Part shown: positions 9,412-33,020 of the stretch, in pieces
Numbering within the stretch: position 1 is the stretch's first letter
How the letters are laid out: the number at the start of each line of letters is the position of its first letter
Source: an uncultured Rickettsiales bacterium
GTDB taxonomy: Bacteria; Pseudomonadota; Alphaproteobacteria; Rickettsiales; JABCZZ01
Direction of reading: 5' to 3'
Length of the DNA: 40,682 nt
NCBI GenBank assembly: GCA_964520155.1
Contig: CAZFOM010000002.1
Location: 1,703 to 42,384 of the forward strand
The notes under the pieces: generated by a model
The model's database searches: none
What the model saw: the letters and a program-made list of their open reading frames with translations, nothing else
Told to the model about the DNA's origin: nothing
Position numbers and translations under genes: made by a program

Positions 9412-9467
9412 TGTTCATACCAGTATTCGTCTGTCATGCTAGGATGAATCGAATGTCCCCTTAATCG

Positions 9468-9777: not shown

Positions 9778-11031
9778 ATGGCGAATATCATAGGTAGTTC
9801 AGGAAGTGATTTGCTGAACGGCACGATCAATAATGACACGATCATTGGCGGCTCCTGAGACGACTCGCTCTATGGCGGCGACGGCAACGACAGCATAAAC
9901 GGTGGTAGAGGCAGAGACCTCATCTACGCGGGATTCGGAAACGACATCATTGATGGTGGCAGCGAAGACGACGTAATTTTTGCGGAATCCGGCAATGACA
10001 CGATTGTTGGCGGCAGCGGCAATGATTTCATTTATGGAGACAGTGAAAACACGAAGCAGAATCTTGTTCTTAACGGTTCGTTTGAGATGCTGGGTTCTAG
10101 CGGCAGTGTAACGGGTTATGGTTATAGCACCCCTGTCCTTCCAGACTGGACACTCGACTCAGATCCCGCCTATGAAATGGTGAATGCCGGCTGGAATGGC
10201 ATCGCACCAAGTGATGGCACCTATTGGCTGGATATGGATGCTTCTCCGGGCAATATCAGAATATCACAGACCATCTTAGGCCCGGATGATGGCCTGTCCT
10301 ATCAACTGAGTTTTGAAGCGGCCGACTTAAATGCCGACGGCGTTTCGGCCAACAGCATTAGGGTCTACTGGGGTGGCGAATTGATAGGCTCTCTGGGTGG
10401 ATTGACCACTAACATGCTCACCTATTCGATTGAGCTAATTGGCGGCGCCGGCGATGGCTCCAACGTGCTATCGTTTGAGGCTACCGGAGATGCCGATGAT
10501 ATCGGCGCATCCCTCGACAATGTCCGCCTCTTTTCTAATGCCGATATTGATGGCAAGCATAATGATTCCATCGAAGGCGGCTCAGGCAAAGACCAAATTA
10601 CCGCTAGCGCTGGGAATGACACCGTCAATGGCGGATCCGACGACGACTTTATTAACGGCGGTACCGGCAATGATAGCCTCATGGGCGGTTCGTCCGGAGC
10701 GGATATCATCATAGGTGATTGGGGCGCTGACACGATGAACGGCGGCTCCGGAGCAGACACATTCGTCTATCGGTCGTATGAAGATTCTAACACACCAGCA
10801 CGCGACCTGATCATCGGATGGGATGCAAATGACATCTTTGATCTGGCGAACTACACTGCTTTCGACTTTGGCTTTAACAACATCGCGTTCGGCGCAGGAA
10901 GTGGAAGCACACTAGGCTACACGTATGTTTCCGGTAACACGATTATTAAAGCCGATCCATTCGTCGCGGATTTCACCATCGAACTCCAGGGCATCCACAA
11001 CCTTATCAATGCCGATTTCATCTACGTTTAA
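9778..11031 (+). pseudogene. RTX (hemolysin-type Ca2+-binding repeat) secreted protein gene interrupted by an in-frame TGA at 9856-9858; the intact downstream ORF is 10087-11031
   Basis: The ATG at 9778 is preceded by GGAGAAGG. The frame reads MANIIGSSGSDLLNGTINNDTIIGGS*DDSLYGGDGNDSINGGRGRDLIYAGFGNDIIDGG... and continues into the 10087 ORF. Central NGSFE... beta-jelly-roll-like domain. C-terminal GGxGxD repeats and a serralysin-type T1SS tail (DTFVY...D.I.G.D..D.FDL). Confidence 0.7.
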
Positions 11032-11064
11032 GACAGGCTGTATAAGTACGATTTAATGAATTAG

Positions 11065-11098
11065 GGGAGATTATCTTGATAGATAATCTCCCTTTTTT
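11065..11098 (+). terminator. rho-independent terminator of the RTX gene
   Basis: Perfect 12-bp stem gggagattatct / agataatctccc, 4-nt loop, then TTTTTT. Confidence 0.8.
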
Positions 11099-11103
11099 AT
11101 TTC

Positions 11104-11208
11104 CGTCATTGCGAGAAGCGTGAGCTCCGCGGCAATCCAAAACTTGTCTTGTCATGCCGCACTGGTTGCGGCATCCAGGGCAGACCCCGCAATAAATGCG
11201 GGGTGACA
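11104..11208. repeat. partial composite palindromic repeat element (same module order as 6619-6750, right outer arm missing)
   Basis: cgtcattgcgag..., then gtcatgccgcactggttgcggcatcc (11151-11176), then gaccccgcaataaatgcggggtgac (11184-11208). Confidence 0.75.
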
Positions 11209-11340
11209 ATTTACTTGAATACTGCGAAATAAAATGTACGATTTCAGGTAAGGTGATGTTTTTGTATCTTTAACCCGCTGACGCCATATTGCTGCGGGTA
11301 TTTTTTTGTCGTTTCATTGACAACACCCTATAATCCACTT

Positions 11341-11411
11341 AACGTGGCTTTCGAAGAGGGGCGAAGTGCGCCCAGCGAATAACAAACCTGCTGAGCGCGG
11401 GTTTTTGTTTT
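11341..11411 (+). ncRNA. candidate small RNA, unit 1 of a tandem pair
   Basis: 5' tggctttc, internal hairpin GGGCG-aagtg-CGCCC, and terminator AACCTGC-N5-GCGGGTT + U-run. A possible promoter is TTGTCG-N17-TATAAT (11306-11334). Confidence 0.25.
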
Positions 11412-11470
11412 GACTTGCTATAGAAAAAAATTAACATAGATTAACTTTGACGTCACAGCTGTATCTAAAA

Positions 11471-11545
11471 CTTGGCTTTCATTAATTGCCGTCACGAGAT
11501 TTGAGCGTTTGCTCAAATAGAACCTGCCTTTAGCGGGTTTTTTGT
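11471..11545 (+). ncRNA. candidate small RNA, unit 2 of a tandem pair
   Basis: 5' tggctttc, internal 8-bp hairpin atttgagc-gttt-gctcaaat, and the identical terminator stem AACCTGC-N5-GCGGGTT + U-run. Confidence 0.25.
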
Positions 11546-11592
11546 ACCTACTTTTTTGTAGGATTTTTTTTAACATTTAGTTCGGAGAACTG

Positions 11593-11700
11593 ATGAAGAA
11601 GCTGCTTAAGCGGCTTCGTAAAGCATTGCCTATGGTAATTGCTTTTACGAAGAACCCGCTTGTGCTGATGCTGATCAAAGAAATCTTTTTCGAAGATTAA
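11593..11700 (+). CDS. hypothetical 35-aa peptide (basic N-terminus, hydrophobic core)
   Basis: GGAGA lies 6 nt upstream of the ATG. Sequence is MKKLLKRLRKALPMVIAFTKNPLVLMLIKEIFFED, followed by a 10-bp AU-rich inverted repeat (11713-11747). There is no homology evidence. Confidence 0.2.
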   Translation: MKKLLKRLRKALPMVIAFTKNPLVLMLIKEIFFED

Positions 11701-11802
11701 TTAATCACGTCACATAAAAACCTTTTTTATTGAATATGGTTTTTATGAGGATTTGTTGCGTCTATACATTAGGATTTATCCAATAAAATAGCAACCCAAC
11801 AC

Positions 11803-11890
11803 CGTCATTGCGAGCGATAGCGAAGCAATCCAGTTCTTTCTTCATTGTTTGACTGGATTGCCGCGCTCACGTTGTTCGCTCGCAATGACG
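11803..11890. repeat. complete palindromic repeat element (cgtcattgcgagcg...aatccagt / actggatt...cgctcgcaatgacg)
   Basis: The arms are reverse complements around a T-rich loop. The element ends 2-3 nt from the GIY-YIG stop codon. Confidence 0.85.
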
Positions 11891-11892
11891 GA

Positions 11893-12183
11893 TTAGCCGG
11901 TGATTGAGTCATACAAATCCAGCCATTCCGGATTCATGGATTCAATCAACTCCAACTTCTTTTTGCGAGAACCGGCTTTAATCTGCTTTTCTCTTGTGAT
12001 GGCAGATTCCATGGTTTCGTGCATTTCGTAATATACCAATTTGTCGCAACCATATTTTTCCGTAAATCCTTTAACCAGCTTGTGTTTATGTTGGTAGACA
12101 CGGCCTACCAGATCGGAAGTGACACCCACATAGAGCGTACCGTTACGTCCACTGGCTAAAATATAAACTGCCGGATTTTTCAT
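11893..12183 (-). CDS. GIY-YIG nuclease family protein (UPF0213 / YhbQ-like, COG2827-type)
   Basis: 96 aa: VYILASGRNGTLYVGVTSDL..RV.QHK....GFT.KY....LVY.E......AI.REKQIK. Confidence 0.85.
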   Translation of the reverse strand: MKNPAVYILASGRNGTLYVGVTSDLVGRVYQHKHKLVKGFTEKYGCDKLVYYEMHETMESAITREKQIKAGSRKKKLELIESMNPEWLDLYDSITG

Positions 12184-12208
12184 ACTCTAAGTATATACAC
12201 ATTACCCT

Positions 12209-12318
12209 CCGTCATTGCGACCCCCGCGAAGGCGGGGGGAAGCAATCCAGTTCTTTCTTTTCTACAGAATTTGTTGCTTGACTGGATCGCCACGGCCTAT
12301 GGCCTCTTACCCCCGTGA
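12209..12318. repeat. palindromic repeat element, degenerate right arm, with an extra GC hairpin (ccccgcgaaggcgggg) inserted in the left arm
   Basis: ccgtcattgcga[ccccgcgaaggcgggggg]aagcaatccagttctttc...actggatcgcc.... The loop orientation matches that of 11803-11890. Confidence 0.7.
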
Positions 12319-12349
12319 CAGCCCACAACGCCTATGCTAGCTGTTTGAT

Positions 12350-16713: not shown

Positions 16714-17760
16714 GTGCGGTATTTCGGGATCATCGTTGCATTGCTATTGGGTTTGGGACTAAGCGCCTGCGCCACCCCGCACGAACAACCGTACGCGAAA
16801 AACACCCTCTCCCCCCAACTCATTGGCACGGAAACCCTCAAAACCGGCGACAATACCAAGCTGCCGATCAAGGTGTGGATGCCAGAGAAAAAACCCACCG
16901 CGATCATCGTCGCGTTGCATGGGTTCAATGATTACAGCAATGCGTTTGCAATTCCGGCAAAACGTTTAAGCGAATCGGGTGTCGGGGTGTATGCGTTTGA
17001 CCAGCGCGGATTCGGTCGCAACCCGCAGGCGGGATTGTGGGCAGGCACGCCAAACTTGACCGCCGATCTTGCCGATATGGTGGAAGCCGTTAAAAGAGTA
17101 CACCCAAACACACCTCTGTATATTTTGGGCGAAAGCATGGGCGGGGCCGTTGCAATTTCCGCGCTGGCACAACCTGACTTCCCGAAGGTGAATGGACTGA
17201 TTCTGGTTGCTCCCGCTGTGTGGGGTGATGATACGATGAACAGTTTTTATCGTTTGTCACTGTGGGTGCTCGCGCACATGGTTCCGGATAACACTGCAAC
17301 CGGACGCGATCTCAGGATTCTCGCCTCGGACAATATCCCTATGCTGCGCGAAATGGGGAAGGATCCGTATGTTCTGAAATCCACACGTATCGACGCGGTT
17401 TACGGCATGGTGGGGCTGATGGATACGGCCTATACCCACGCCGAAAATCTCGATGTTCCTGTATTGCTCTTGTATGGTGCGAAAGATCAGGTGATCCCGC
17501 CGCTGCCGATCAAAGAGGTGTCGAAGAAGCTGCCGCAAACAGACAAAGTGGCGCTCTATCCGCTTGGGTATCACATGTTGCTGCGCGACTTAAACGGACA
17601 CCTGGTCACGAACGATATTCTTCACTGGATCCGCTCCAAACACACGCCCCTGCCTTCGGGATACGAAATGGATCCACAGCGCTTTGTTGCAAAAAAGGCA
17701 TTGCACGAGGAAGTCGTGAACTCTACGGTGAGTGAGACGGTTCGCCCTAACAAGCGATGA
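16714..17760 (+). CDS. alpha/beta hydrolase (lysophospholipase/monoglyceride-lipase-like) lipoprotein
   Basis: GESMGG nucleophile elbow and HGFNDYS. The lipobox GLSAC follows VRYFGIIVALLLGLG. The GTG at 16714 with an upstream AGGA is preferred over the ORF-track TTG at 16630. Confidence 0.75.
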   Translation: MRYFGIIVALLLGLGLSACATPHEQPYAKNTLSPQLIGTETLKTGDNTKLPIKVWMPEKKPTAIIVALHGFNDYSNAFAIPAKRLSESGVGVYAFDQRGFGRNPQAGLWAGTPNLTADLADMVEAVKRVHPNTPLYILGESMGGAVAISALAQPDFPKVNGLILVAPAVWGDDTMNSFYRLSLWVLAHMVPDNTATGRDLRILASDNIPMLREMGKDPYVLKSTRIDAVYGMVGLMDTAYTHAENLDVPVLLLYGAKDQVIPPLPIKEVSKKLPQTDKVALYPLGYHMLLRDLNGHLVTNDILHWIRSKHTPLPSGYEMDPQRFVAKKALHEEVVNSTVSETVRPNKR

Positions 17761-17960
17761 GGTGAGAGCAATCTCACCGTAAAGGGAATCAGGTGCGTGA
17801 ATATCCTTAAGATACTAACAAATCCTGAGCTGTGCCCGCAACTGTAATCAGCGAGTGTGTCTGCACTATGCCACTGGGACGCCGGATCCAACAATACGGA
17901 ACCGGAACACTGGGAAGGCCGCAGACAAGCGATGACCTGAGAGTCAGGAGACCTGCCGTC
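17761..17960 (+). promoter_or_regulatory. cobalamin (AdoCbl) riboswitch
   Basis: AAAGGGAATCAGGTGCG, GCTGTGCCCGCAACTGTAA, GCCACTGGGA, GGGAAGGC and the B12 box AGTCAGGAGACCTGCC. It lies directly upstream of a TonB-dependent receptor. Confidence 0.85.
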
Positions 17961-18060
17961 CATGTGTCACGCGAGCTGGTGTTGAACGGGGTCATTCAGT
18001 CAGTCACGGATTGTCCATACGCGGTGACATGAACACGAACACGACGTATGGAGTCTATTC

Positions 18061-19872
18061 ATGAAACTATCTTTATCCGCTGCATTGCTATGCAGCGCCC
18101 TGCCGCTTGCGGCGTCTGCTTCTCCCCTCTCGCTGGTGATCACCCCCACTCGAACCGAAACGCCGATCGCGCAGATCGGCAGCAGCGTGTCGGTGCTCAC
18201 TTCGGCTGATCTCGAGCGGCTGCAACTTCCAACCGTGCGCGACGCACTCGCGCATGTGCCAGGCGTGTCGCTTGCCAGTAACGGAGGCACCGGACAAACC
18301 ACTTCCGTGTTTATCCGCGGCGCCAAATCCGAACACACGTTGGTGCTGGTGGATGGCGTGCCGGTAAACGATCCGTCCTCTACTACCAATTCCTATGATT
18401 TTGGACGACTATCCACCAGTCACGTTGAGCGGATCGAGGTGTTGCGCGGAAGCCAGAGCGTGCTGTATGGGCCTGAAGCGATTGGCGGCGTGATCAATAT
18501 CATCACCAAACGCGGTACGGATAAACCGGCATTTAACTCGAGCGCCGAATATGGATCAGATAACAGCTATCAGCTTTCAACCGGCGCGCGCGGTGCAGTA
18601 GATCAGCTTCGCTACTCCGCCAATGTGACACATCGCCATACCGACGGCGTATCCGCGTTCAACTCACGGCGCGGTGGACTGGAAGAAGATGGCGATGAAA
18701 CCACGACTTACTCTGGCCGTCTGGATGCCGATATCTCCGACGCCCTGCGCGCCTATACGACCGGACGTTACACGCGCGGCTATACGGAGTTCGACGATTT
18801 CGGCACCGATGCCGATAACGATGCCAAGTCCAATGAGCTTAGTTGGCGCGGGGCGGGTGTGGCAACGCTTTTAGATGGAAAATGGTCGCAGGAACTCGGA
18901 CTTTCGTATCTCAACACCGGACGCTCCAGCACCTCGTCCTTTGGCACATTTCGCTATCAGGGAAAGCGCGTGGGTGCTGACTGGGTACACACGCTTACCC
19001 CCGTCCAGAATCATGTGATCACAGCAGGGCTTGAAACCGCGGAAGAAACGTTTTCTACCGATTTTGATACCAGCCGTTCAGTGCGCAATCATGCGATCTT
19101 TGTTCAGGATCAGTGGAACGTCGTGGATTTGCTCTATGTGACTACGGGTGCGCGACTGGACAAGCACGACGAATATGGCAGCGAATGGACATACCGCATC
19201 GCTCCCTCTTACCTGATTGAATCCACTGGTACGCGACTCAAGGCGAGCATTGCCAACGGTTTCAAAGCCCCTTCCCTGTTTCAACTATTCTCATTTTTTG
19301 GTAATGCTGCACTCAAGCCGGAAAACAGCGATAGTTTCGATGCAGGATTCGAGCAATCGCTGCTCAATGGATCGGTGCAATTCGGTGCTACCTATTTTCG
19401 TCTTACAGTGGATGATCTGATTGATTATGATTTTGCCGCTAACCGGTATATCAATACCGGAAAAACGCAATCCCAGGGGGTTGAGAGCTTCATCCGCTAT
19501 GCGCCTATGCCCTCGCTGACACTCGCACTCAACCATACCTACACGAAGGCGGAAGACCGCATCACGAAAGCGGATCTGCTACGCCGTCCGAAACATACAT
19601 TCTCTGGTGATGTAACCTGGCAACCGCGCGACGATATTCGGCTCGGCGTGAATGCCACCTATCAGGGAGTGCGCGAAGATATCAATCTGGCGTTCAACCG
19701 CACGCGCATGGGGGGATATCCCCTGCTCAATGTCACGGGCGACTGGAATCTTAATTCCCGTTTCACGCTGTATGGCCGTCTGGAAAATCTGCTCGATCGG
19801 GAATACGAAAATGTCTTCAGCTACGGCGCACGCGGACTTTCCGCCTTTGCCGGTATCCGCGCGGAGTATTAA
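18061..19872 (+). CDS. btuB: TonB-dependent outer-membrane receptor, vitamin B12 transporter BtuB-like
   Basis: Signal peptide, plug domain (ITPTRTETP.....SVSVLT..DLER), C-terminal aromatic residue (...GIRAEY). It follows a B12 riboswitch. Confidence 0.85.
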   Translation: MKLSLSAALLCSALPLAASASPLSLVITPTRTETPIAQIGSSVSVLTSADLERLQLPTVRDALAHVPGVSLASNGGTGQTTSVFIRGAKSEHTLVLVDGVPVNDPSSTTNSYDFGRLSTSHVERIEVLRGSQSVLYGPEAIGGVINIITKRGTDKPAFNSSAEYGSDNSYQLSTGARGAVDQLRYSANVTHRHTDGVSAFNSRRGGLEEDGDETTTYSGRLDADISDALRAYTTGRYTRGYTEFDDFGTDADNDAKSNELSWRGAGVATLLDGKWSQELGLSYLNTGRSSTSSFGTFRYQGKRVGADWVHTLTPVQNHVITAGLETAEETFSTDFDTSRSVRNHAIFVQDQWNVVDLLYVTTGARLDKHDEYGSEWTYRIAPSYLIESTGTRLKASIANGFKAPSLFQLFSFFGNAALKPENSDSFDAGFEQSLLNGSVQFGATYFRLTVDDLIDYDFAANRYINTGKTQSQGVESFIRYAPMPSLTLALNHTYTKAEDRITKADLLRRPKHTFSGDVTWQPRDDIRLGVNATYQGVREDINLAFNRTRMGGYPLLNVTGDWNLNSRFTLYGRLENLLDREYENVFSYGARGLSAFAGIRAEY

Positions 19873-20711
19873 TGATAAAGTACCTGCTTGCAGCCTGTGT
19901 AACCGGATTTGTTCTTACTTCACACGCACAGGCTGCAAGTGTACGGGTCGCATCGGCCAATCTCTGCGCGGATCAACTACTCATTGAAATGGCGCAGCCT
20001 GAACAGATTGCGGCGGTGAGTCATTTCGCTACGGATCCTCTGTTATCAGTCGAATACGAATCCGCGAAGTCTCTACCTTCCATTCGTGGCACGGTGGAGG
20101 AGATGGTTCGGCTCAAACCGGATGTCGCGCTCGTGGGTCGCACACAGATTCCAAAATCCATGCAGCCTGTGCTTGCGCCCACGCGCATCGTGGAAATTGG
20201 TATTCCCACGACGATTACTGAGGTGGAAAACCAGATCCGGCAGATGGGAGAGCTGCTAGACAGACCCGAAATTGCAAAACGCCTGATCGCGCGGATGCAG
20301 GCGCGTCTGATCCAAACCCGATTGCGCAGCCGCGCACTCACTTTTGTGCCGCGCGTGCTCGTCTATCATCATCACGGCTATACTGAATCTTCCGACTCGA
20401 TACTCGCCTCCCTCCTTCCTTATGTGGGTGCGCAACTGTACACGACCGATGCGCATGTGACACTGGAACAGCTCGTTGCGGATCCGCCGGATCTTATTAT
20501 CTATGCATACACGCGCGATGCTTCGCCTGCACTTGGCAACATTCCACTGTCGCATCCGGTTTTTCGGGAGTGGAAACCGACGGCGTTTATGGCTATTTCT
20601 CCGGCGCTGCTCATGTGCAATAACCATCACATCGCAGATATTGCGAGCCAGATCATGGATCATCTGGAAATGCTTGAGCCACCCACACCTAAATTCGCTA
20701 TGCTCCCATGA
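19872..20711 (+). CDS. btuF: periplasmic substrate-binding protein of a cobalamin/siderophore-type ABC importer (BtuF-like)
   Basis: Signal peptide ...SHAQA and a class III PBP-like sequence. The start overlaps the btuB stop (TAATG). The assignment is partly by operon context. Confidence 0.65.
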   Translation: MIKYLLAACVTGFVLTSHAQAASVRVASANLCADQLLIEMAQPEQIAAVSHFATDPLLSVEYESAKSLPSIRGTVEEMVRLKPDVALVGRTQIPKSMQPVLAPTRIVEIGIPTTITEVENQIRQMGELLDRPEIAKRLIARMQARLIQTRLRSRALTFVPRVLVYHHHGYTESSDSILASLLPYVGAQLYTTDAHVTLEQLVADPPDLIIYAYTRDASPALGNIPLSHPVFREWKPTAFMAISPALLMCNNHHIADIASQIMDHLEMLEPPTPKFAMLP

Positions 20712-21694
20712 TGTCGCTGCGCACCCCACTCATAGCACTCGTATGCATCACGATTCTCGTGAGCGCGCTGTCACTTCTGATTAGCGATACGCCGTCTCTT
20801 ACGCATTTCGGATTTGCAGGTCTGGACTACGCCATCGCATCCACTATCGTCATGGAACTGCGACTCCCGCGTCTGCTCGTGACACTCCTGACCGGCGCAA
20901 GCCTTGGCATGGCTGGTGCGGCATTACAGGGGTATCTGCGCAATCCGCTAGCCGAACCGAGCCTGCTTGGTATTTCCAACGGTGCGGCGCTGGGAGCGGT
21001 GCTCGTATTTTATTCCGGCCTTGCCGCAACCCATGCATTGCTGCTGCCTGCCTCGGGGATTGCCGGCGCCTGTGTGTGCGGCATCCTCGTCTATCTGCTA
21101 TCCGGCCGAAGCGGGCATTCGTTATCCACGATACTCGCCGGTATTGCCTTATCGAGCCTTTTGGGCGCGCTGATTGCCGTCCTGTTGAATCTTGTGCCCA
21201 ACCCCTACGCGGCGCTAGAAATCGTCCACTGGCTGATGGGATCGGCAAGCCAGACCAGCATGACACAAGTACTGCTTGTTGCGCCTTTTGTGCTGGTGGG
21301 TATGTGGGTGCTGCTCATGAGTGGGAAAGCCCTTGAAGCACTGAGCCTGGGCGAAACGGTTGCAGCCTCGCTCGGGGTGAGTCTAAGGCGAACACAATTT
21401 CTCATACTTACTGGCACTGCACTTACCGTTGGTGCATGTGTATCCATCACCGGTAGTATCGGGTTTGTGGGATTGATCGTGCCGCACCTGCTCAGGCGCT
21501 TCGTCCACCACTCGCCCTTTCATCTCTTATGGGCGTCGGCGCTGGGCGGCGCAATCCTGCTCACGCTATCAGACATACTCGTGCGACTCATCCCTACCAG
21601 CGGCACCGAACTGAAACTCGGTGTGGTCACCGCACTCATCGGGGTACCGTTTTTCTTTCATCTCATTCGATCTCGCGCGAAGGAACTCGTATGA
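20708..21694 (+). CDS. btuC: FecCD-family ABC permease (BtuC-like)
   Basis: 328 aa, polytopic, with LRLPRLL, GASLG.AGA.LQ and GFVGLIVPHL motifs. Confidence 0.85.
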   Translation: MMSLRTPLIALVCITILVSALSLLISDTPSLTHFGFAGLDYAIASTIVMELRLPRLLVTLLTGASLGMAGAALQGYLRNPLAEPSLLGISNGAALGAVLVFYSGLAATHALLLPASGIAGACVCGILVYLLSGRSGHSLSTILAGIALSSLLGALIAVLLNLVPNPYAALEIVHWLMGSASQTSMTQVLLVAPFVLVGMWVLLMSGKALEALSLGETVAASLGVSLRRTQFLILTGTALTVGACVSITGSIGFVGLIVPHLLRRFVHHSPFHLLWASALGGAILLTLSDILVRLIPTSGTELKLGVVTALIGVPFFFHLIRSRAKELV

Positions 21695-22437
21695 ACCTGC
21701 GCGCAGAATCCATCACCCTCACACGCCATCAACGGACGATTCTAAACCGTGTATCGCTCTCGGTGCGAGAAGGTGAACTGGTCGCAATGGTGGGGCCAAA
21801 TGGTGCGGGGAAATCCACCCTACTGCGGGTACTAAGTGGCATCAACGCGGCTGATCAGGGAAGCATGACACTCGATGGTTCGGCTCTCAACCCCAAGCAT
21901 ATTGCCTATGTCGGTGACACGCGACGGGTGGAATGGTCGCTTTCCGCGCGTCAGGTGGTGGAGCTTGGCAGGTTGCCCCATCAATCCCTGTTTCGACGCC
22001 CCAGCAAAGAGGATGAACAAGCCGTGGAGGAAGCACTTACCACTACCCATACCACCGCACTTGCGCATCGCGACTATCATGCGTTATCGCACGGAGAACA
22101 GGCGCGCGTAATGCTCGCACGCGCGCTGGCGACCCGTCCGCAATTTCTGTTGCTCGATGAGCCGCTCTCGGGTCTTGATCCCAAATATCAGATTGAGATG
22201 ATGCAACTGCTCCACGCTATGTCCCAAAACGGAACGGGTATTGTTATTGTATTACACGATATCAGTTTAGCGTTGCGATTTGCTTCCCGCATCGTCGCGG
22301 TAAAAGAGGGAAAGATTCTGGGCGATGATGTTCCGGCAAAACTCATCACCCGACAATTGCTGCGCGAACTGTTTGATCTCGATGCCGCAATCGGCCATGT
22401 GCATGGCGTGCCGTTTATTCTTCCCATTAGTACATAG
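21691..22437 (+). CDS. btuD: ABC transporter ATP-binding protein (BtuD/FecE-like)
   Basis: The start at MNLRAESI overlaps the btuC stop (ATGA). Walker A GPNGAGKST, signature LSHGEQARV, Walker B LLLDEP. Confidence 0.85.
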   Translation: MNLRAESITLTRHQRTILNRVSLSVREGELVAMVGPNGAGKSTLLRVLSGINAADQGSMTLDGSALNPKHIAYVGDTRRVEWSLSARQVVELGRLPHQSLFRRPSKEDEQAVEEALTTTHTTALAHRDYHALSHGEQARVMLARALATRPQFLLLDEPLSGLDPKYQIEMMQLLHAMSQNGTGIVIVLHDISLALRFASRIVAVKEGKILGDDVPAKLITRQLLRELFDLDAAIGHVHGVPFILPIST

Positions 22438-25032: not shown

Positions 25033-25593
25033 GTGGTTGTTTTGAGTAAAATATATACCCGCGGCGGGGATAAAGGGAAAACGTCCCTGGTGGATGGTGC
25101 CCGCGTGTCCAAGCATCATGTGCGTGTGGAAGCCTACGGTGCCATCGATGAAACCAACGCCGCCATCGGTGTGGTTCGGCTCTACACCAAGGGCAAGAAT
25201 GATGCGATGCTTGCGCGCCTCCAGAATGATCTTTTCGATCTCGGTGCCGATCTCGCCACGCCCCATTCTGCTAAAATGAAAACCGCACTACGCATCGTCG
25301 AGTCGCAGGTAAAGCGGCTGGAAACCGAAATCGACGCCATGAACGCCACCCTGAAACCGCTCAATTCGTTCGTGCTGCCTGGCGGTTCAACCGTAGCCGC
25401 ATATCTGCATGTGGCGCGCACCATCTGCCGGCGCAGTGAACGCGCCATCACTGCGCTCATGGAAGTCGAATCCATCAATCCATTGGCGCTGCAATACACC
25501 AACCGTCTTTCGGATCACCTCTTTGTCATGTCGCGTTATGTGAACGACAAGGGCAAGAAAGACGTGTTGTGGGTTCCAGGACTCAACCGGTAG
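25033..25593 (+). CDS. ATP:cob(I)alamin adenosyltransferase, PduO/MMAB type
   Basis: [15 protein letters not shown]-terminus, 186 aa. Confidence 0.9.
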
Positions 25594-25600
25594 TGAGCAT

Positions 25601-26350
25601 ATGAAGATACTCGTCCCCGTCAAACGCGTCGTGGATTACAATGTGAAGATCCGCGTCAAGAGCGATCAGTCCGGCGTGGAACTCGCCAATGTGAAAATGT
25701 CCATGAATCCGTTTGACGAAATTGCCGTCGAGGAGGCCGTCCGGCTGAAAGAAAAAAACATCGCTAAGGATATAGTGGTTGTGGCCATAGGATCGGAGGC
25801 ATCGCAGGAAACATTGCGCACAGGGCTAGCACTCGGTGCCGATCGTGCTATTCACATCGTCACCGAAGGGGTGAGTGATTCGCTTGCCGCAGCAAAACTA
25901 CTCGCAACTGTGGTAAAGTCGGAAAATCCGGATCTTGTGATTCTGGGTAAACAAGCCATTGATGATGATTGCAACCAGACCGGCCAGATGCTCGCAGGCC
26001 TTCTCGGCTGGCCACAGGCAACCTTTGCCTCCAAACTGGAAGTGGCCGATGGAAAGGCCACCGTCACGCGCGAGGTGGATGGAGGGCTTTCAACCGTTGA
26101 ATTGACCCTTCCAGCTATTGTGACTACCGACCTGCGCTTAAACGAGCCACGCTACGCCTCGCTTCCCAACATCATGAAAGCACGGAGCAAGCCGCTGGAG
26201 AAGAAAACCCCAGAAGAGCTGGGTGTGTCGCTTGCAACGCGGCATAGTATACTGAAGGTCGAAGAACCGAAAAAACGGCAAGGCGGAAAGAAAGTAAAAG
26301 ATGTTCCCGAGCTTGTGGATAAATTGAGGAACGAAGCGAAAGTCATTTAA
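25601..26350 (+). CDS. etfB: electron transfer flavoprotein subunit beta
   Basis: [19 protein letters not shown]..., 249 aa, full length. Confidence 0.95.
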
Positions 26351-26395
26351 CGCTCATATTGTACACTTATTGATTTATCACATACACATCAATGT

Positions 26396-26426
26396 GTTAA
26401 TTCCACAAACCTGCTCTGGAATTAAC
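26396..26426. promoter_or_regulatory. perfect 10-bp inverted repeat GTTAATTCCA-N11-TGGAATTAAC (candidate operator) upstream of the curlin gene
   Basis: 26396-26405 is the exact reverse complement of 26417-26426. The right half plus 2 nt (tctggaattaac) recurs at 9717-9728 upstream of the RTX gene. Confidence 0.35.
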
Positions 26427-26474
26427 CATATGTTACGATTGTGTTAAAGTTGTTAACAATAGTTACCTTTTATG

Positions 26475-26503
26475 TTGCTCCGTATTTTACAGCGTGCTAT
26501 AAG
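26475..26503 (+). promoter_or_regulatory. candidate sigma70-type promoter for the curli operon
   Basis: TTGCTC-N17-TATAAG, about 70 nt upstream of the ATG. Sequence match only. Confidence 0.25.
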
Positions 26504-26573
26504 ACGCAGCCTTATCGTATATTAACTATTTATTAACTTTTTACTTACTCTTTTTTAACTTTACGAGGTTCAC

Positions 26574-28139
26574 ATGAAAACGTTTTCACTTCTTTCGACG
26601 GTGAGCGCTGTCGCGATACTGATCGCAGCCAATGCTCATGCACTCGATAACTTTGTCAATATCGACCAAGTTACGCAAAATAACGCTGCCAGCGCGGTAC
26701 AGAGCGGTTCGGAGAACCAATCCCGTATCTATCAAAAAGGCGATGTATTCAACAAGTCCTTCAGCACCCAGATCGGCGAACAGAACCAGTATCTCTCCTC
26801 GCAGAACGGCTTCAACAATGAAGCAACGGGCTATGCTGCTGGTGTCGCAAACGAAGCTATCATTGATCAGACCGGTGCAAACCATAAGTCGATCAACTCC
26901 GTTCAGGGCGATAATAACGACATCGTAAGCGTGCAGACCGGCGGTGATCATTATTCCCAGATCACGCAGAACGCCAATTCCGCTATCGCCAACGTTCGTC
27001 AGGAAGGCGCAAACCAGCAGACATTCCTGTTTCAGGGCGGTATAGAAAACCGTGCATTCCTCTCGCAGGAAAATGCTGCTAACTTCATCAATGGTTATCA
27101 AGATGGTATCCGCAACCGTGTTACCGCCGCTCAGACCGGCAACTTACAGAAGCTGAGCTTCGATCAGCGCGGTGTCGAATCCAACATCAACGTCACCCAG
27201 TCCGGATCGGATCACAGCGCGTTCGTTGGCCAGAATGGCAGCAACGGCACGGTCAATCTCGGTCAGGCAGGCCTGCAACATAATGCATATGTGACGCAGG
27301 GCGGCTCTGAGAACGTGGCAAACCTGAACCAGCAGAATCAGGGTAATGGCCTTGTTGGCAATCAGGGTGGTTTCAAAAACACCGCAAACGTGAACCAGAT
27401 TGATCAGTTCCAGTATATTACCTTCTCGCAAACGGGTAATAAGGAGATCTTGAACTCCAACCAGTCCGGTATCTCGAATAAAGCACACGTCAATCAGGTT
27501 GGTAACAACGGTGTGTTCAACCTTGAGCAAGTCGGCAACAACAACAAAACGGTTGCCGACCTGCAGGCCGGCCACACTACGTTCGCTCCGACCGTGGACT
27601 ATCCATTCGGCGTGAAATCCACCAACGTGAAACAGGTGGGTGGCTCGAACTACGCGCAGGTGACTCAGCGTGGCGGCGATCCGCTCGCAGACATCACCCA
27701 GACCGGTGTCAACCATGCGGCGTTCCTCTATCAGGAAGGAAACACCAACACCTATCTGCTCAAGCAGAACGGAGATGGTAACTTTGCCAATGGTTATCAG
27801 TCGTTCCAGAACAACCTCGCCAACGTGACGCAGGACGGGTTCTGGCACAAATCCACCATCGAGCAGACCGGCCGTGAAGGCACCGCGCTCGTGCTTCAGA
27901 CCGGTGGCAATCAGGAAGCCTATATCTACCAGAAAGGAAAGCTGCAGGTCGCAGAATCCAATCAGGAAGGCTATGGCAACAAGCTGATCGTCGCGCAGGA
28001 TGGATTGAACAACTACACCAAATCCTTCCAGCGTGCAGAAGGCAACTTCGCCAACGTAAGTCAGACCGGTACGACCGATGTGACTTTCATCAATCAGCTC
28101 GACTCGTTCAATACGATCAACGTGTCACAAGCTGACTAA
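26574..28139 (+). CDS. csgA: curlin-repeat protein, major subunit candidate (CsgA-like, ~22 repeats)
   Basis: Signal peptide ...ANAHA, then consecutive ~22-aa units with Q-x-G-x-x-N-x-A-x-x-x-Q periodicity. The composition is rich in Gln, Asn and Gly. It is followed by csgF and csgG homologues. Confidence 0.8.
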   Translation: MKTFSLLSTVSAVAILIAANAHALDNFVNIDQVTQNNAASAVQSGSENQSRIYQKGDVFNKSFSTQIGEQNQYLSSQNGFNNEATGYAAGVANEAIIDQTGANHKSINSVQGDNNDIVSVQTGGDHYSQITQNANSAIANVRQEGANQQTFLFQGGIENRAFLSQENAANFINGYQDGIRNRVTAAQTGNLQKLSFDQRGVESNINVTQSGSDHSAFVGQNGSNGTVNLGQAGLQHNAYVTQGGSENVANLNQQNQGNGLVGNQGGFKNTANVNQIDQFQYITFSQTGNKEILNSNQSGISNKAHVNQVGNNGVFNLEQVGNNNKTVADLQAGHTTFAPTVDYPFGVKSTNVKQVGGSNYAQVTQRGGDPLADITQTGVNHAAFLYQEGNTNTYLLKQNGDGNFANGYQSFQNNLANVTQDGFWHKSTIEQTGREGTALVLQTGGNQEAYIYQKGKLQVAESNQEGYGNKLIVAQDGLNNYTKSFQRAEGNFANVSQTGTTDVTFINQLDSFNTINVSQAD

Positions 28140-28227: not shown

Positions 28228-28830
28228 ATGAATAAACTGCTTATCCTCCCACTCGCATTCCTGGTTTCCAGCCCTGCTCTTGCACTGAATAATGCCGTGC
28301 AGATTGATCAGGTGGTGGGTAACGGAAATGTTGTGCAGGCCGCGCAGGCGGGTGAGCAAAACACGCTCATCGTGCAGCAGGGCGGTGTGGACGGATTTAT
28401 TGATGCAAGCCAGTCAGGCACCGGAAATAATCTTGCCCTGAATCAATTTGGAACCGACAACGAAATGTATGCCTACCAGCGCGGTGAGCGCAATGTGGGA
28501 AGGCAAACGCAGAACGGCGAAGCAAATATCTCCATCCTCTATCAGCGCGGCGAGGACAATTACTCGCTTCAGAATCAGGATGGTTTCAATAACTATGCAT
28601 TCACTTATCAGAAGGGTGATCGTAACGTTTCCGAGACGATCCAGATCGGAAACGATAACATCGCCACCAAAGTACAGATCGGCGATGATCTGGAGCATAA
28701 AGTAACACAAGAAGGAAACGGAATGTCTGTGAGAATTTTGCAACAGACCGTCAATCTCGATAAGGATTACGAGCACTTGAAGATGCTCGAACAAGAGCTG
28801 GGCGGAATCACGATTTCCGTCAACCAATAG
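28228..28830 (+). CDS. curlin-repeat protein, second subunit (CsgB-like nucleator candidate)
   Basis: The start is set at MNKLLILPLAFLVSSPALA (signal peptide). About 7 curlin-type units follow (e.g. NNLALNQFGTDNEMYAYQRGER) and then a non-repeat C-terminal tail. Confidence 0.75.
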   Translation: MNKLLILPLAFLVSSPALALNNAVQIDQVVGNGNVVQAAQAGEQNTLIVQQGGVDGFIDASQSGTGNNLALNQFGTDNEMYAYQRGERNVGRQTQNGEANISILYQRGEDNYSLQNQDGFNNYAFTYQKGDRNVSETIQIGNDNIATKVQIGDDLEHKVTQEGNGMSVRILQQTVNLDKDYEHLKMLEQELGGITISVNQ

Positions 28831-28882: not shown

Positions 28883-29290
28883 ATGAAAACGCTTTCCATC
28901 ATTACCGTATCTTTGATACTCGGCACAGCTTCCTTGGCGAACGCGAGCGAGCTGCGCCACCAATTCACCAATCCGGCATTTGGCGGGTTTCCGGCAAATG
29001 GCGCCTATTTCCTGCAAAACGCACAGGCGCAGAACCAGCATAAGGAAGATACTGGCCGCAATACACCATCGCAGAACTTTGCGCAGACGATTACCAGCAG
29101 CCTGCTCAACCGCATTGCGTTCAATATCGCGGATCAGATCTACGGAGAGAACGCAAAAGACTCCGGCCGTTTCGTGATTGATGATACCCTGCTGGAGTTT
29201 AATCGCGTCAATAATCAGGTGATTGTGAACATCACCAACTCCACTACCGGCGAAAAAACCACCATCGAATTACCGGTAACCGAATTTTAA
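28883..29290 (+). CDS. csgF: curli assembly/transport component CsgF
   Basis: The mature N-terminus SELRHQFTNPAFGGFPANGAYFLQNAQAQN closely parallels E. coli CsgF ([27 protein letters not shown]). Confidence 0.85.
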   Translation: MKTLSIITVSLILGTASLANASELRHQFTNPAFGGFPANGAYFLQNAQAQNQHKEDTGRNTPSQNFAQTITSSLLNRIAFNIADQIYGENAKDSGRFVIDDTLLEFNRVNNQVIVNITNSTTGEKTTIELPVTEF

Positions 29291-29326
29291 CGCATCGGCG
29301 TTATACCAAACAGGTAGGGAGTGCAT

Positions 29327-30478
29327 ATGCGTTATATACTGATGATTTCTGCAGCATTGTTTCTTGCAAGCTGTACCAGCGGCGGCATGTCGGGCAGTGC
29401 GTTCACATCTGAAGCCAAGGTCGCGGATAAAACCAAAACCTTTGAAATGCTCAAAACCATGCCGGTGGCAGCACAGAAAGTGGTGGTGTCTGTCTATAAT
29501 TTTGAAGACCAGACCGGTCAGCATAAACCCGATGATAATTCCCCGCAGTATTCCCGCGCCGTCACGCAAGGCGGTCTGGCCATACTGAATAAAGCGCTGC
29601 TGGATGCCGGCAATCATGGATGGTTTACGGTGATCGAGCGCGGCGGGCTGCAAAATCTCCTTCAGGAACGCCAGATCATTCGCTCCACCCGCGATCAGTA
29701 TCGCCTGCCGGACGGACGCAAACTCCCTGATCTTGGGCCTCTGCTTTATGCCGGCCTGTTGCTTGAAGGCGGTATTGTCTCCTATGAATCGAATATCATG
29801 ACGGGCGGTATTGGCGCACGTTACTTGGGTATCGGCGGTAGTACTGAATACCGTCAGGATATTGTAACGGTCTATCTGCGCGCTATCAGTGTGCAGACCG
29901 GCGAAGTGCTGGTATCCGTCAACACGGCCAAAACGATTTTCTCCTCCGGTGTCTCTGGCGGTGCCTATAAATATGTCGCCGTGGACAAGCTGCTCGAAAT
30001 CGAATCGGGATTCACTGTGAACGAACCCCCGCAGTTTGCCGTGCGTCAGGCCATCGAAATGGCCGTGTATTCACTGATCATGGAAGGTGCAGAACGCAAT
30101 CTCTGGGGCTTTGCCGACGCTGCCACAGGGCAAATGCGTTTACTGGATTATATCGAAAAACGCGATGGCAGCAGACCCGTTAGCTCTACCGCGGTGGTGG
30201 AACCCACCTCCGTAAGGCCTGCAACGCCTGCTCAGGAAAACCCTCCCGCACGCGCGCCGGATCTTGCACCACAACAGCCCAATGCCAATCCGACGCTGAA
30301 TGTGCCCACGGGAAATCTGGAGCGCCAGAGCAGTAACGGGACGGTTGTCGATCCAAAAGTCGAAGAAAAAACACCCGCCACCACGACACCGGAAGTGGAA
30401 TATATGAACAACCCGAAGCGCGATAAGCTCTATTGCACTAGCGGCGGCTGTTATCCGTTTCCGCCTCCCACCCGATAA
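29327..30478 (+). CDS. csgG: curli secretion channel lipoprotein CsgG with ~110-aa Pro/Thr-rich C-terminal extension
   Basis: Lipobox LASC, VSVYNFEDQTGQ, YSRAVTQGG..IL..AL..G.FTVIERGGLQNLLQERQI. AGGGAG lies upstream of the ATG at 29327. Confidence 0.85.
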   Translation: MRYILMISAALFLASCTSGGMSGSAFTSEAKVADKTKTFEMLKTMPVAAQKVVVSVYNFEDQTGQHKPDDNSPQYSRAVTQGGLAILNKALLDAGNHGWFTVIERGGLQNLLQERQIIRSTRDQYRLPDGRKLPDLGPLLYAGLLLEGGIVSYESNIMTGGIGARYLGIGGSTEYRQDIVTVYLRAISVQTGEVLVSVNTAKTIFSSGVSGGAYKYVAVDKLLEIESGFTVNEPPQFAVRQAIEMAVYSLIMEGAERNLWGFADAATGQMRLLDYIEKRDGSRPVSSTAVVEPTSVRPATPAQENPPARAPDLAPQQPNANPTLNVPTGNLERQSSNGTVVDPKVEEKTPATTTPEVEYMNNPKRDKLYCTSGGCYPFPPPTR

Positions 30479-31855
30479 TCACTTCGCTTCTGCCAGCGGC
30501 AATTCGATAAGCACTTTAAGTCCCGGGTGGTTATCTGAGAAACTGAGTTCTCCCTGATGTAGTTTGATTGCCGCGTGCACGAGGCTCAAACCAAGGCCAT
30601 TTCCAGGCGTGCTGCGACTGGTTTCCAAGCGAAAGAATTTCTCGGTCACTTTATCATAGAACTCCGGCGGGATGCCTTTGCCCTGATCCGCAATCATGAC
30701 CTGTGCTTTCCCATTCTCCATCTGAAGCGAAATGCGTAACTGGCTCTCCGCAGGAGAATACTTGATCGCATTATCGAGCAGGTTGGCAAAGGCCTGAGAC
30801 AACAGGTGACGATCTCCCATAACCCATACCCCCGCTTGAATATCGGATTGCTCGGACATGGATTTTTCTTCGGCCACCGGCCGATATAGCTCGAGCACGT
30901 TATCGAGAATAGCAGACAGATCGCACGGCACAAAATGTTCGATCCCTGCCCCTACCTCGGCCTGCGAGATGTGCAGGATAGCGTTGAACGTGCCCACCAG
31001 ATCATCAATTTCCTGTAAACAGTGACGCAACTGCTCTGCATGTTCTTCATACGACATATCCTGTTGCAGCAGGAACTCGACGCGGTTGCGCAGTCGATTG
31101 AGTGGCGTGCGCAAATCATGCGCCACGTTGTAGGAAATATCGCGTACCCCGCCGATCAGTTCTTCGATACGGGTGAGCATCCGGTTGATGTTTTCGGCCA
31201 GATGGTCGAATTCATCGGCACTTCCAGACACCGCGACCCGTGTCTGTAATTTGCCCTGCATCACGGTTTCACATACCTGATTGACGCGCTCTAAGCGACG
31301 GTTGATCGTGTAGGAAATTAAAAAGCCGCCCAGAGAGGCAAGCAGCGCCGTGATACCAAAACAGATGAACAGTACATTGGATATTAACTCACGAATTTTT
31401 TCCTGTGCCGCGAGTTTGCGCCCCACCAGCAGAATATAACCGCGCGGCAGCGACGAATTGATCCCGATGGCTTTGTGCGCGCCGGAGCCGGTTTTCTTCT
31501 CCACCGTAAAGGTGATCCAGTCTGCCGGCTTGATCGACCCGCCTGGCCATTTCTCCAGATTTCCTGCGATGATATTCCAGTCGGAATCCATCAATAAAAA
31601 CACCTGATTGCCTTCGCGATCCTTCTCGATCAGGTGATTGATGCTCGCCGCCGTATCGCGCAGGCCTTCCCGTATGAAAGTGCGCCCGAGATCGGCAAGC
31701 TGGATGTTAATGTCGTATTTCAGCTGGCGATCCAGTTCCGCAGTAATGACCGAATAAATGATGACCAGCAGCACCGCTACCGATGCGCCAAACAACAGGA
31801 TATACAGCATCGTCAGGCGAAATGCCGCCGAATTATAGAGTTTCCCCGATTTCAT
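30479..31855 (-). CDS. sensor histidine kinase (two TM segments, periplasmic domain, HAMP, HisKA, HATPase_c)
   Basis: H-box SYNVAHDLRTPL, N-box LLDNAIKY, G-box DQGKGIP...GNGLGLS. The stop codon abuts the csgG stop codon. Confidence 0.85.
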   Translation of the reverse strand: MKSGKLYNSAAFRLTMLYILLFGASVAVLLVIIYSVITAELDRQLKYDINIQLADLGRTFIREGLRDTAASINHLIEKDREGNQVFLLMDSDWNIIAGNLEKWPGGSIKPADWITFTVEKKTGSGAHKAIGINSSLPRGYILLVGRKLAAQEKIRELISNVLFICFGITALLASLGGFLISYTINRRLERVNQVCETVMQGKLQTRVAVSGSADEFDHLAENINRMLTRIEELIGGVRDISYNVAHDLRTPLNRLRNRVEFLLQQDMSYEEHAEQLRHCLQEIDDLVGTFNAILHISQAEVGAGIEHFVPCDLSAILDNVLELYRPVAEEKSMSEQSDIQAGVWVMGDRHLLSQAFANLLDNAIKYSPAESQLRISLQMENGKAQVMIADQGKGIPPEFYDKVTEKFFRLETSRSTPGNGLGLSLVHAAIKLHQGELSFSDNHPGLKVLIELPLAEAK

Positions 31856-32532
31856 TCGCCGCCCGAAACCAGTTGATACCCCGCGCCGCGAATCGTCTTG
31901 ATCAAGGATTTCTGAAAGCCCTTATCCACTTTATTGCGCAAGCGGCTGATCTGCACATCAATCACGTTGGTTTGGGGGTCAAAATGAAAATCCCAGACAT
32001 TTTCAAGCAACATCGTGCGGGTCACAACCTGCCCTGCATTACGCATCAGGTATTCGAGCAACGCAAATTCACGGTTTTGAAGCGAAATTTCTTTCCCTTG
32101 CCGCATAACCTTGCGCGTGAGGAGATTCATGCTGAGTTCACCGACGGTGAGCACACTCTGCTCGGTGGCAGGCCCCACCCTGCGCGAGAGCACCTCGATA
32201 CGCGCCATCAGTTCACTGAACGCAAAGGGCTTTACCAGATAATCGTCCCCGCCGGCCTTAAGTCCTTTCACGCGCTCATCCACCTGGTGCAGGGCACTCA
32301 GTATTAAAATCGGATAGGTTTTTTTGGCATTGCGTATGGTTTGAATGATGGTGAGCCCATCTACTTTGGGCAGCATACGATCCACAATCAATACATCGTA
32401 TTCATTATCGAGCGCGAGATACAGCCCTGTGTTGCCATCCTCCGCGATTTCGCACTGATGCCCTGCCTCCGACAATCCGTTACGGATAAACTGCGCCGTC
32501 TCCTTGTCGTCCTCAATGATCAGCAACCGCAT
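31852..32532 (-). CDS. OmpR-family response regulator
   Basis: The start is at MRLLIIEDD, preceded by GGGGAGAG. Receiver Asp in VLIVDRMLP. Winged-helix C-terminus (LTRKV...LEYLMRNAGQVVTR...IRGAGY). ATGA overlap with the kinase gene. Confidence 0.9.
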   Translation of the reverse strand: MRLLIIEDDKETAQFIRNGLSEAGHQCEIAEDGNTGLYLALDNEYDVLIVDRMLPKVDGLTIIQTIRNAKKTYPILILSALHQVDERVKGLKAGGDDYLVKPFAFSELMARIEVLSRRVGPATEQSVLTVGELSMNLLTRKVMRQGKEISLQNREFALLEYLMRNAGQVVTRTMLLENVWDFHFDPQTNVIDVQISRLRNKVDKGFQKSLIKTIRGAGYQLVSGGE

Positions 32533-32566
32533 GTCACTCTCCCCCTGTATAGGCACTGTAAGTCAT

Positions 32567-32619: not shown

Positions 32620-32901
32620 TTACTTCGCGATTTTGCCATCTTTGGTGGTGACGGTGGTGCCGTCTTTCAGCTCGTGGGTGCCATCTGGAGCTGGGGTTTT
32701 GGTGCCGTCAGCGTTCACGACGGAAACTGCATCACCAGCAACTTCCACTTTGGTGCCGTCTTTCAGCTCGAGGGTGGTCACAGCAGGAGCAGCAGCTTCA
32801 GCAGCGGCAGGAGCAGCAGCTTCGGTTTTTGCTTCTTCAGCAACAACAGCGGTGGAAAGTGCAAGGCCGGCAACAGCGGCAAGTGCGAACAGTTTGTTCA
32901 T
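32620..32901 (-). CDS. small secreted protein with Ala/Glu-rich linker and duplicated LKDGT(K/T)V motif
   Basis: The start is at MNKLFALAAVAGLALSTAVVA (signal peptide), preceded by GGAGAC. An internal 20-nt exact DNA duplication (tggtgccgtctttcagctcg) occurs at about 32655 and about 32752. Confidence 0.65.
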   Translation of the reverse strand: MNKLFALAAVAGLALSTAVVAEEAKTEAAAPAAAEAAAPAVTTLELKDGTKVEVAGDAVSVVNADGTKTPAPDGTHELKDGTTVTTKDGKIAK

Positions 32902-33020
32902 GTTGGTCTCCAAAAAAATGAGATGTTTAGGTTAAAAATGCAACCGAGTGGTTACATAGGTTCAATATAGTGCAAGAACGTAACCTGTAAATGTCATCAA
33001 CATTACAAATGTGTAATGTT

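Follow-up and report, generated by a model that had tools for sequence, protein, structure and literature searches.

The stretch of DNA analysed here (the window, 40,682 nucleotides (nt) in length) carries a compact operon for curli, the best-studied functional amyloids of bacteria, in which the length of the subunit sets the size of the fibre building block. Four genes follow each other on the forward strand in the order long curlin, short curlin, csgF and csgG, separated by gaps of only 91, 52 and 30 nt. The long curlin gene, for whose product we propose the role of the major curli subunit, is an open reading frame (ORF) of 521 codons plus stop at 26574–28139 (+). It is followed by the short curlin gene at 28231–28830 (+), which codes for 199 amino acids (aa) counted from MNKLL, matches the Pfam family Curlin_rpt with E = 3e-6 and is proposed to encode a CsgB-like nucleator; its product consists of a signal peptide, about 6–7 repeats, a non-repeat insertion and a last strand. 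These two are the only ORFs of the window that carry curlin repeats. Both csgF (28883–29290, +; 135 aa; PF10614, E = 5.7e-32) and csgG (29321–30478, +; 385 aa) are located on the same strand as the long curlin gene and within 1.2 kb downstream of it. The latter encodes the outer-membrane lipoprotein channel, with the lipobox LASC and a CsgG domain at residues 47–262 (PF03783, E = 3.2e-57). No Pfam match to csgE, csgC, csgD or csgH was obtained in the operon or among the main ORFs of the 40-kb window. Since the gaps between the genes are so short, the operon cannot accommodate csgE, csgC or csgH, and because it contains no unassigned ORF there is no candidate for csgH; such genes may be located in other parts of the genome. 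The GC content of the operon (0.47–0.54) resembles that of the window (~0.52), and a horizontally transferred island was therefore rejected.

The ORF of the long curlin and the four peptides quoted from it in an earlier note on this DNA were all present as given. Translation starts at an ATG codon with a GAGG sequence located 5 nt upstream. Residues 1–23 (MKTFSLLSTVSAVAILIAANAHA, followed by LD; 26574–26642, +) form a putative Sec-type signal peptide, in agreement with the signal ending in ANAHA that had been read there before. On inspection, MK is followed by a 17-residue hydrophobic core and by A-H-A at positions -3 to -1, with L as the next residue, which corresponds to the usual n/h/c layout with an A-x-A motif preceding the proposed cleavage site. 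Residues 3–19 have a mean Kyte-Doolittle hydropathy of 2.06, as compared to -0.69 for the mature part, and residues 1–23 are predicted by AlphaFold2 with a predicted local distance difference test score (pLDDT) below 50. The mature protein comprises 498 aa (53.4 kDa, pI 5.0), lacks cysteine and contains only three prolines; its most prominent residues are Asn (14%), Gln (11.5%) and Gly (10.9%).

The assignment to the curlins was based on the Pfam family Curlin_rpt (PF07012), which recognised the long curlin with 104.9 bits (cutoff 20.7; E = 1.9e-30). Such a scan had been put forward in the earlier note as a way of counting the units. It was clearly significant, but only 6 stretches were reported at E≤0.01 and 13 at E≤10. 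Since the model spans 34 positions, the number of stretches understates the number of units. Apart from the repeats no non-curlin domain was found in the protein with Pfam. Among solved structures, phmmer matched the long curlin to the curlin of Pontibacter korlensis (8c50_A, E = 2e-19) and to CsgA of Escherichia coli (8enq_A, E = 2e-4). With these matches and the csgF/csgG operon in place, the earlier description as a CsgA-like curlin-repeat protein holds.

In order to count the repeats we analysed the periodicity of the protein against 2000 composition-preserving shuffles. Residue identity amounts to 0.218 at a lag of 11 residues and to 0.242 at a lag of 22, as compared to 0.081 +/- 0.012 in the shuffled sequences (z = 11 and 13), and it peaks at each multiple of 11 (0.20–0.24), with off-register lags at about 0.06. 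A hidden Markov model (HMM) seeded with five repeats was over-fitted and gave too few units, and a register table anchored on the conserved Gln was used instead. This table contains 45 consecutive strand units of 11 aa. A classical curlin repeat of about 22–23 aa consists of two such units, with N-x-psi-x-psi-x-Q motifs linked by X-G-X-X arcs. The array therefore comprises 22.5 repeats, arranged as 28 strands (14 repeats), one degenerate unit and 16 strands (8 repeats), very close to the approximately 22 units in blocks of about 14 and 8 that had been estimated by eye. The spacing is 11 throughout with the exception of three spacings of 12. The Gln is conserved in 42 of the 45 units, a Gly at +2 in 35 and an Asn at -6 in 23, while the inward core positions are occupied by Ala and Val/Ile/Leu. 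Fixed motifs gave the same picture: QX10Q occurs 37 times (7.0 +/- 2.3 in shuffles) and Q.G..N.A...Q six times (0.00 in shuffles).

The N-terminal block (residues 24–331; 26643–27566, +) holds 28 units, equivalent to R1–R14, and coincides with the AlphaFold2 strands from E27 to E331. The C-terminal block (residues 348–521; 27615–28136, +) holds 16 units, equivalent to 8 repeats, and is represented in an AlphaFold2 model of its own. Repeats extend from residue ~25 to the very last residue without capping elements, and with the degenerate unit included the array terminates on a half repeat. An N22-like leader is missing, because the repeats begin at around residue 25 of the precursor. When odd and even half motifs were compared the consensus was found to be almost identical, x-N-x-A-N-V-x-Q-x-G-x being present in both, and identity at lag 22 is only slightly higher than at lag 11. 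This places the repeats close to the "centrosymmetric" class described by Sleutel et al. (PMC10192328), albeit with some degeneracy.

Between the two blocks lies a stretch of 16 residues (332–347, AGHTTFAPTVDYPFG; 27567–27614, +). The earlier note had regarded it as a non-repeat linker. The break is narrower than had been described, and it is not a spacer of free length but one degenerate half repeat in register. The flanking Gln anchors, Q331 and Q354, are 23 residues apart instead of the canonical 22 (Q331-(Y343)-Q354, 12 + 11), and the half repeat itself, TFAPTVDYPFG at residues 337–347, has lost both its Gln and its Asn. Two of the three prolines of the protein, P339 and P344, are located here. 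AlphaFold2 predicts no strand at residues 332–348, with a pLDDT below 50 for residues 335–343. Most simply, the degenerate unit is a bulged or looped-out rung of an otherwise continuous solenoid, similar to the local solenoid decorations in the "degenerate class" of curlins (PMC10192328). None of the analyses pointed specifically to the hinge or processing site suggested in the earlier note. If it loops out, the number of stacked strands would be even, and the overhang at the C-terminus would shift to the other sheet.

At the DNA level the repeats are strongly diverged. Tandem Repeats Finder detected no tandem array inside the long curlin gene, and a DNA repeat search returned only short matches of 60–80% identity spaced at multiples of 33 nt. 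Given this lack of tandem similarity in the DNA, the array is old and diverged, as had been concluded before. A faint super-period of 88 aa, i.e. four repeats, was noticed in the N-terminal block (26748–27563, residues 59–330): identity at lag 88 is 0.32, as compared to 0.19–0.27 at other in-register lags. This suggests a trace of ancient growth through duplications of four repeats. We also considered a segmental duplication between the two blocks. This was rejected, as the best diagonal between the blocks, with 33% identity over 166 aa at lag 233, barely exceeds the other in-register lags (30–33%). On the reverse strand of the gene two ORFs were noticed, 26586–27101 (-; 171 aa) and 27144–27848 (-; 234 aa), which are probably a by-product of the codon composition of the repeats.

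The full-length AlphaFold2 model, calculated from an alignment of 8 sequences, is all-beta with 44 strands at a spacing of 11 residues (pLDDT 73.3; predicted template modelling score (pTM) 0.63), and confidence is low only in the signal peptide, at residues 113–115 and at residues 335–343. The C-terminal block alone (residues 348–521) was also predicted to be all beta, with a pLDDT of 92.2 and a pTM of 0.86; the rows of its alignment were non-overlapping segments of the N-terminal block, the short curlin and five homologs. By analogy to the solved curlins, a two-sheet beta-solenoid geometry is strongly favoured for the long curlin. From the same homology, stacking of the rungs would give a solenoid of about 10.8 nm in length (22.5 x 0.48 nm).

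We then assessed how the long curlin relates to known proteins and whether it is under selection. No record of the exact sequence was found in the public collections queried. In a full HMMER search of 1.84 billion representative proteins, 558 relatives reached E≤1e-3 and 23 of these E≤1e-10, and E≤1e-30 was not attained by any. They range from 100 to 1632 aa in length, and their identity does not exceed ~37%. A word-indexed homolog search gave seven matches, all of them Curlin_rpt proteins of 367–786 aa. Long curlins are common, but the one of the window has no close relative in the library of 1.84 billion proteins. With CsgG as a probe, the nearest genomes at 59–63% identity were metagenome-assembled genomes labelled Rickettsiales and Dadabacteria. 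One of the loci retrieved (L001) encodes a degenerate curlin of 470 aa, a curlin of 249 aa, csgF and csgG; another (L002) three short curlins, csgF and csgG; a third (L003) a single short curlin, csgF and csgG. The csgF-adjacent curlin of L002 aligns end to end with the short curlin of the window at 35% identity, and the long curlins of the window and L001 are only 23% identical.

A scan of metagenomes yielded an orthologous operon on a contig of 4.3 kb (L014), which contains the last 259 residues of a long curlin, a short curlin, csgF, csgG and a convergent kinase gene. The linkage of curlin, csgF and csgG is therefore common to all four related loci. Comparison of the window with L014 showed 87% identity for CsgF, 80% for CsgG and 63% for the short curlin. 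The long curlin is the most conserved protein of the operon: over the last 259 aa the alignment is ungapped with 91.5% identity, dN/dS (the ratio of non-synonymous to synonymous substitution rates) is 0.05 and dS is 0.94. The ungapped alignment and the low dN/dS are strong evidence that the long curlin is functional and that both the number of its repeats and their register have been preserved, in the C-terminal half at least. For these 259 residues the comparison of the two sequences shows strong purifying selection. In L014 the degenerate unit is of the same length and retains both prolines. Its identity is 76% as compared to 93% in the flanks, with a dN of 0.14 (over 21 codons only) as compared to 0.04.

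Sequence differences between the operons were also noticed in the genes downstream of the long curlin. The CsgG protein of the window exceeds the Pfam CsgG domain by ~110 aa, due to a Pro/Thr-rich extension (residues ~275–385) ending with EVEYMNNPKRDKLYCTSGGCYPFPPPTR. The final 28 aa of this extension are identical in the CsgG of L014 (1954–3132 on that contig), and the remaining extension diverges. CsgG of L001 and L003 (7842–9293 in L003) also have long C-terminal extensions, of other sequence. The extension may be a periplasmic module of systems lacking CsgE; that it is a candidate for keeping the substrate soluble or delivering it without CsgE, CsgC or CsgH is speculation on our part. The short curlin carries a charged non-repeat insertion at residues ~174–190 (LDKDYEHLKMLEQELG) ahead of its last strand. 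This insertion is also found in L014 (FDKDSSDLKMLQKELG) and is absent from the equivalent curlins of L001, L002 and L003.

Taken together, the long curlin very probably serves as the major subunit of functional-amyloid fibres made by a curli (type VIII secretion) system, in a host that is itself probably alphaproteobacterial. The assignment of the host is based on the Rickettsiales label of the nearest CsgG loci, on the class I lysyl-tRNA synthetase encoded in the window and on the lack of csgC, csgD and csgE in the operon. As judged from its sequence, it would be exported by the Sec machinery and cleaved by signal peptidase after AHA, thereby losing residues 1–23. Following the E. coli paradigm and the gene linkage found here, the unfolded 53-kDa chain would then traverse the outer membrane via the CsgG channel with the help of CsgF. 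Outside the cell it is expected to fold into a two-sheet beta-solenoid of ~22.5 strand-arc-strand rungs with a length of ~10–11 nm, the core faces being formed by inward-pointing Asn, small or aliphatic residues and Gln, and the subunits would stack end to end into fibres. The 199-aa curlin next to csgF is probably the CsgB-like, cell-anchored nucleator that templates the long curlin. We infer the distribution of the CsgA role (major subunit) and the CsgB role (nucleator) between the two curlins. At the locus itself, two departures from E. coli curli are apparent, the lack of an N22-like leader and the failure to find csgE.

Several results weigh against this proposal. The NCBIfam model for the CsgA equivalog (NF007470) gives the long curlin 101.6 bits, below its cutoff of 160, and the CsgB model (NF007506) gives 141.1 bits, which is also below the cutoff (165) but above the score of the CsgA model. 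By these scores the protein belongs to the curlin family without being equivalent to E. coli CsgA at the level of orthologs, and as both scores are below cutoff and the CsgB model scores higher, the sequence does not settle whether it takes the A or the B role. Secondly, Pfam detected csgE neither in the operon nor among the main ORFs of the window. The secretion model of E. coli is therefore not transferable wholesale, and delivery of the substrate to CsgG must differ from that in E. coli. Finally, Foldseek searches of PDB with both models gave no significant match (best E 0.25–0.33) and retrieved neither 8C50 nor 8ENQ; the structure prediction asked for in the earlier note thus produced the all-beta fold with strands every 11 residues, but no significant structural neighbour. 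The weak neighbours of the full-length model (best E 0.33) were beta-helix lyases, Ag43 and pertactin, and the C-terminal block gave FapC (PDB 9U4U) as a non-significant one. We treated this outcome as uninformative for a flat repetitive fold and not as evidence against the solenoid.

The NCBIfam scores bear on the possibility that the roles are exchanged, with the long curlin acting as nucleator, anchor or specialised minor subunit and the 199-aa curlin as the polymerising major subunit. The gene of the long curlin is the first of the operon, and in csgBAC of E. coli the first curlin gene is that of the nucleator; in addition, the systems of L002 and L003 do without a long curlin. However, the CsgA and CsgB scores are summed over many repeats and both remain below cutoff, which makes them non-discriminating. 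The curlin retained beside csgF in all four related loci (L001, L002, L003 and L014) is a short one, and the short curlin of the window bears a lineage-specific non-repeat element near its C-terminus, as expected for an anchor. It is also the long curlin, and not the short one, that is most constrained between the window and L014. We therefore consider an exchange of roles unlikely. Still less likely is a monomeric surface or secreted beta-solenoid, serving as an adhesin or in matrix binding without amyloid polymerisation, in which the proline unit separates two domains. It is true that 22.5 rungs already make a long, self-sufficient solenoid, that the array is split 14 + 8 by a single conserved interruption and that monomeric beta-helix adhesins and enzymes are among the weak Foldseek neighbours. 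But capping elements were not seen, the repeats running from about residue 25 to an open half-repeat end, no non-curlin domain was detected, the gene shares an operon with csgF, csgG and a second curlin, and the solved homolog with 15.5 repeats does form fibres (PMC10192328). We also considered that the repeat gene might be decaying or non-functional, or that the ORF had arisen by chance in low-complexity DNA, given that the long reverse-strand ORFs point to a composition that favours open frames and that the exact protein is absent from the collections queried. The comparison with L014 effectively refutes this idea, since dN/dS is 0.05 at a dS of 0.94 and there are no indels over 259 codons. 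The signal peptide and ribosome binding site are intact, the 11-residue register is kept through 45 units and the Curlin_rpt match is highly significant, so that the probability left to it is negligible. The major subunit of a curli fibre is the interpretation we retain for the long curlin.

Multi-repeat curlins had been called essentially uncharacterised in the earlier note. This is outdated, because they have meanwhile been surveyed, modelled and solved. Dueholm et al. (2012; PMC3521004) described CsgA homologs with up to 22 repeats and alphaproteobacterial operons without csgC, csgD and csgE. Sleutel et al. (PMC10192328) collected 8079 unique curlins, in which the repeat number extends from 4 to 62 with secondary maxima near 15 and 22. 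For 2686 of them beta-solenoid models were obtained with AlphaFold2, and a fibre with 15.5 repeats was solved by cryo-electron microscopy; half-repeat termination and degenerate or inserted rungs are described there, as is the finding that N22 is rare and its absence the rule. A paper of 2026 mined 33,564 CsgA-like homologs. Long curlins, half-repeat ends, degenerate rungs and operons without CsgE are thus already described and the current understanding of curli is unchanged by this locus. What is new is the sequence lineage, which is divergent and rather isolated, and not the architecture.

The best match among solved structures is R15.5 of Pontibacter korlensis (UniProt A0A0E3UX01, PDB 8C50; PMC10192328), with an identity of ~30% in the aligned stretches. 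Both proteins are long, have near-centrosymmetric half motifs of the type N-x-psi-x-psi-x-Q, lack an N22-like leader and end on a half repeat. The curlin of the window differs in having 22.5 instead of 15.5 repeats, in its less regular repeats and in the single proline half repeat in the middle of the array; moreover Pontibacter belongs to the Bacteroidota, whereas the long curlin of the window probably originates from the Alphaproteobacteria. With CsgA of E. coli (151 aa, 5 repeats; 8ENQ/8ENR) the long curlin shares PF07012, the Sec signal, the linkage to csgG, csgF and a second curlin and, presumably, nucleation-dependent polymerisation outside the cell. Its repeats are 4.5 times more numerous than those of CsgA, and it lacks the N22 targeting segment. 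The csgBAC-csgDEFG arrangement of E. coli is replaced by a single operon of long curlin, short curlin, csgF and csgG, in which csgE, csgC and csgD were not found and CsgG carries its extension of ~110 aa.

Curlins of the degenerate class, such as those of Sediminicola sp. (A0A0S1S4K2) and Roseovarius indicus (A0A0T5PAS6; PMC10192328), resemble the long curlin in that a regular solenoid is locally interrupted, through loss of the motif or through insertion, which AlphaFold2 models as a solenoid decoration. In these proteins, however, insertions in arcs or strands are recurrent, whereas in the long curlin a single unit of 45 is interrupted and has the canonical length plus one residue. The alphaproteobacterial loci of PMC3521004 are similar to the window in the absence of csgC, csgD and csgE and in having CsgA homologs of up to 22 repeats. 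In many of them csgH accompanies csgA/B, and csgF is missing from about half, while the operon of the window has csgF and no candidate for csgH. FapC of Pseudomonas (PDB 9U4U) is likewise a secreted, repeat-based functional amyloid with a dedicated outer-membrane channel, but its repeat family and the fapA-F secretion operon are unrelated to the long curlin, to which it shows no sequence similarity.

The locus adds a well-behaved curlin of 22.5 repeats and a compact operon without csgE from a poorly sampled lineage. It offers a test case for how CsgG recruits long substrates when both CsgE and an N22 leader are missing, and for the effect of a single degenerate rung on fibre mechanics or subunit docking. 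As to the latter, the degenerate unit might be a programmed discontinuity that affects docking or flexibility, within a mechanistically distinct curli pathway that operates without CsgE, a view we regard as rather doubtful. If it were true, looping out of the unit would turn the 45-strand array into 44 stacked strands and thereby alter the sheet that carries the terminal overhang as well as head-to-tail docking. Alternatively, the unit would place a hinge, or an exposed loop for binding or cleavage, at every ~10 nm along the fibre. A programmed discontinuity combined with the export of a 53-kDa substrate through an extended CsgG without CsgE would amount to a distinct variant of curli assembly.

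The intergenic region upstream of the operon (26351–26573, +; 223 bp) is AT-rich and, from inspection of its sequence, presumably contains the promoter and regulatory sites. It harbours an 11-nt tandem repeat (TATTAACTATT, 3.7 copies, 76% matches) at 26520–26560, just upstream of the GAGG ribosome binding site of the long curlin gene. These copies could be phased binding sites of a regulator or curved DNA. A scan of 26351–26573 for consensus sigma-70 sites gave none, and consensus promoter and terminator scans of the curli operon gave only background levels; the promoter function of the region is thus inferred. On the other side of the operon, genes for a HAMP/HisKA histidine kinase and an OmpR-type response regulator (30479–32556, -) converge on csgG. 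A histidine kinase is found in the same position in L014, which shows that the neighbourhood is conserved, and a regulatory link between the two-gene system and curli is possible.

Among the other genes of the window, a full-length gene for the beta subunit of the electron transfer flavoprotein (ETF; PF01012) is located at 25601–26350. No ETF alpha gene was detected in the window with Pfam, and the curli operon starts at the usual place of etfA. A query with the exact sequence of the ETF beta protein returned no record. A cobalamin riboswitch (Rfam RF00174, 95.5 bits) at 17721–17974 (+) precedes genes for a TonB-dependent receptor and a BtuF/C/D-like ABC transporter (18061–22437, +), and a PduO-type cobalamin adenosyltransferase is encoded downstream of this region at 25033–25593. 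The remaining genes are chromosomal housekeeping genes and include a class I lysyl-tRNA synthetase, an enzyme that among bacteria is typical of Alphaproteobacteria. An RTX calcium-binding repeat protein (PF00353; 10087–11031, +) is encoded between two ORF-poor stretches, 9373–10086 and 11032–12349, defined by having no ORF of at least 110 aa; the lowest GC content of the window (0.41) was found at 11001–12000. Finally, a small secreted protein of 97 aa (32620–32913, -) with an Ala/Pro-rich linker, DGTK/DGTT repeats and a sub-threshold match to DUF6799 is encoded next to the DUF1318 and YdbH-like genes.

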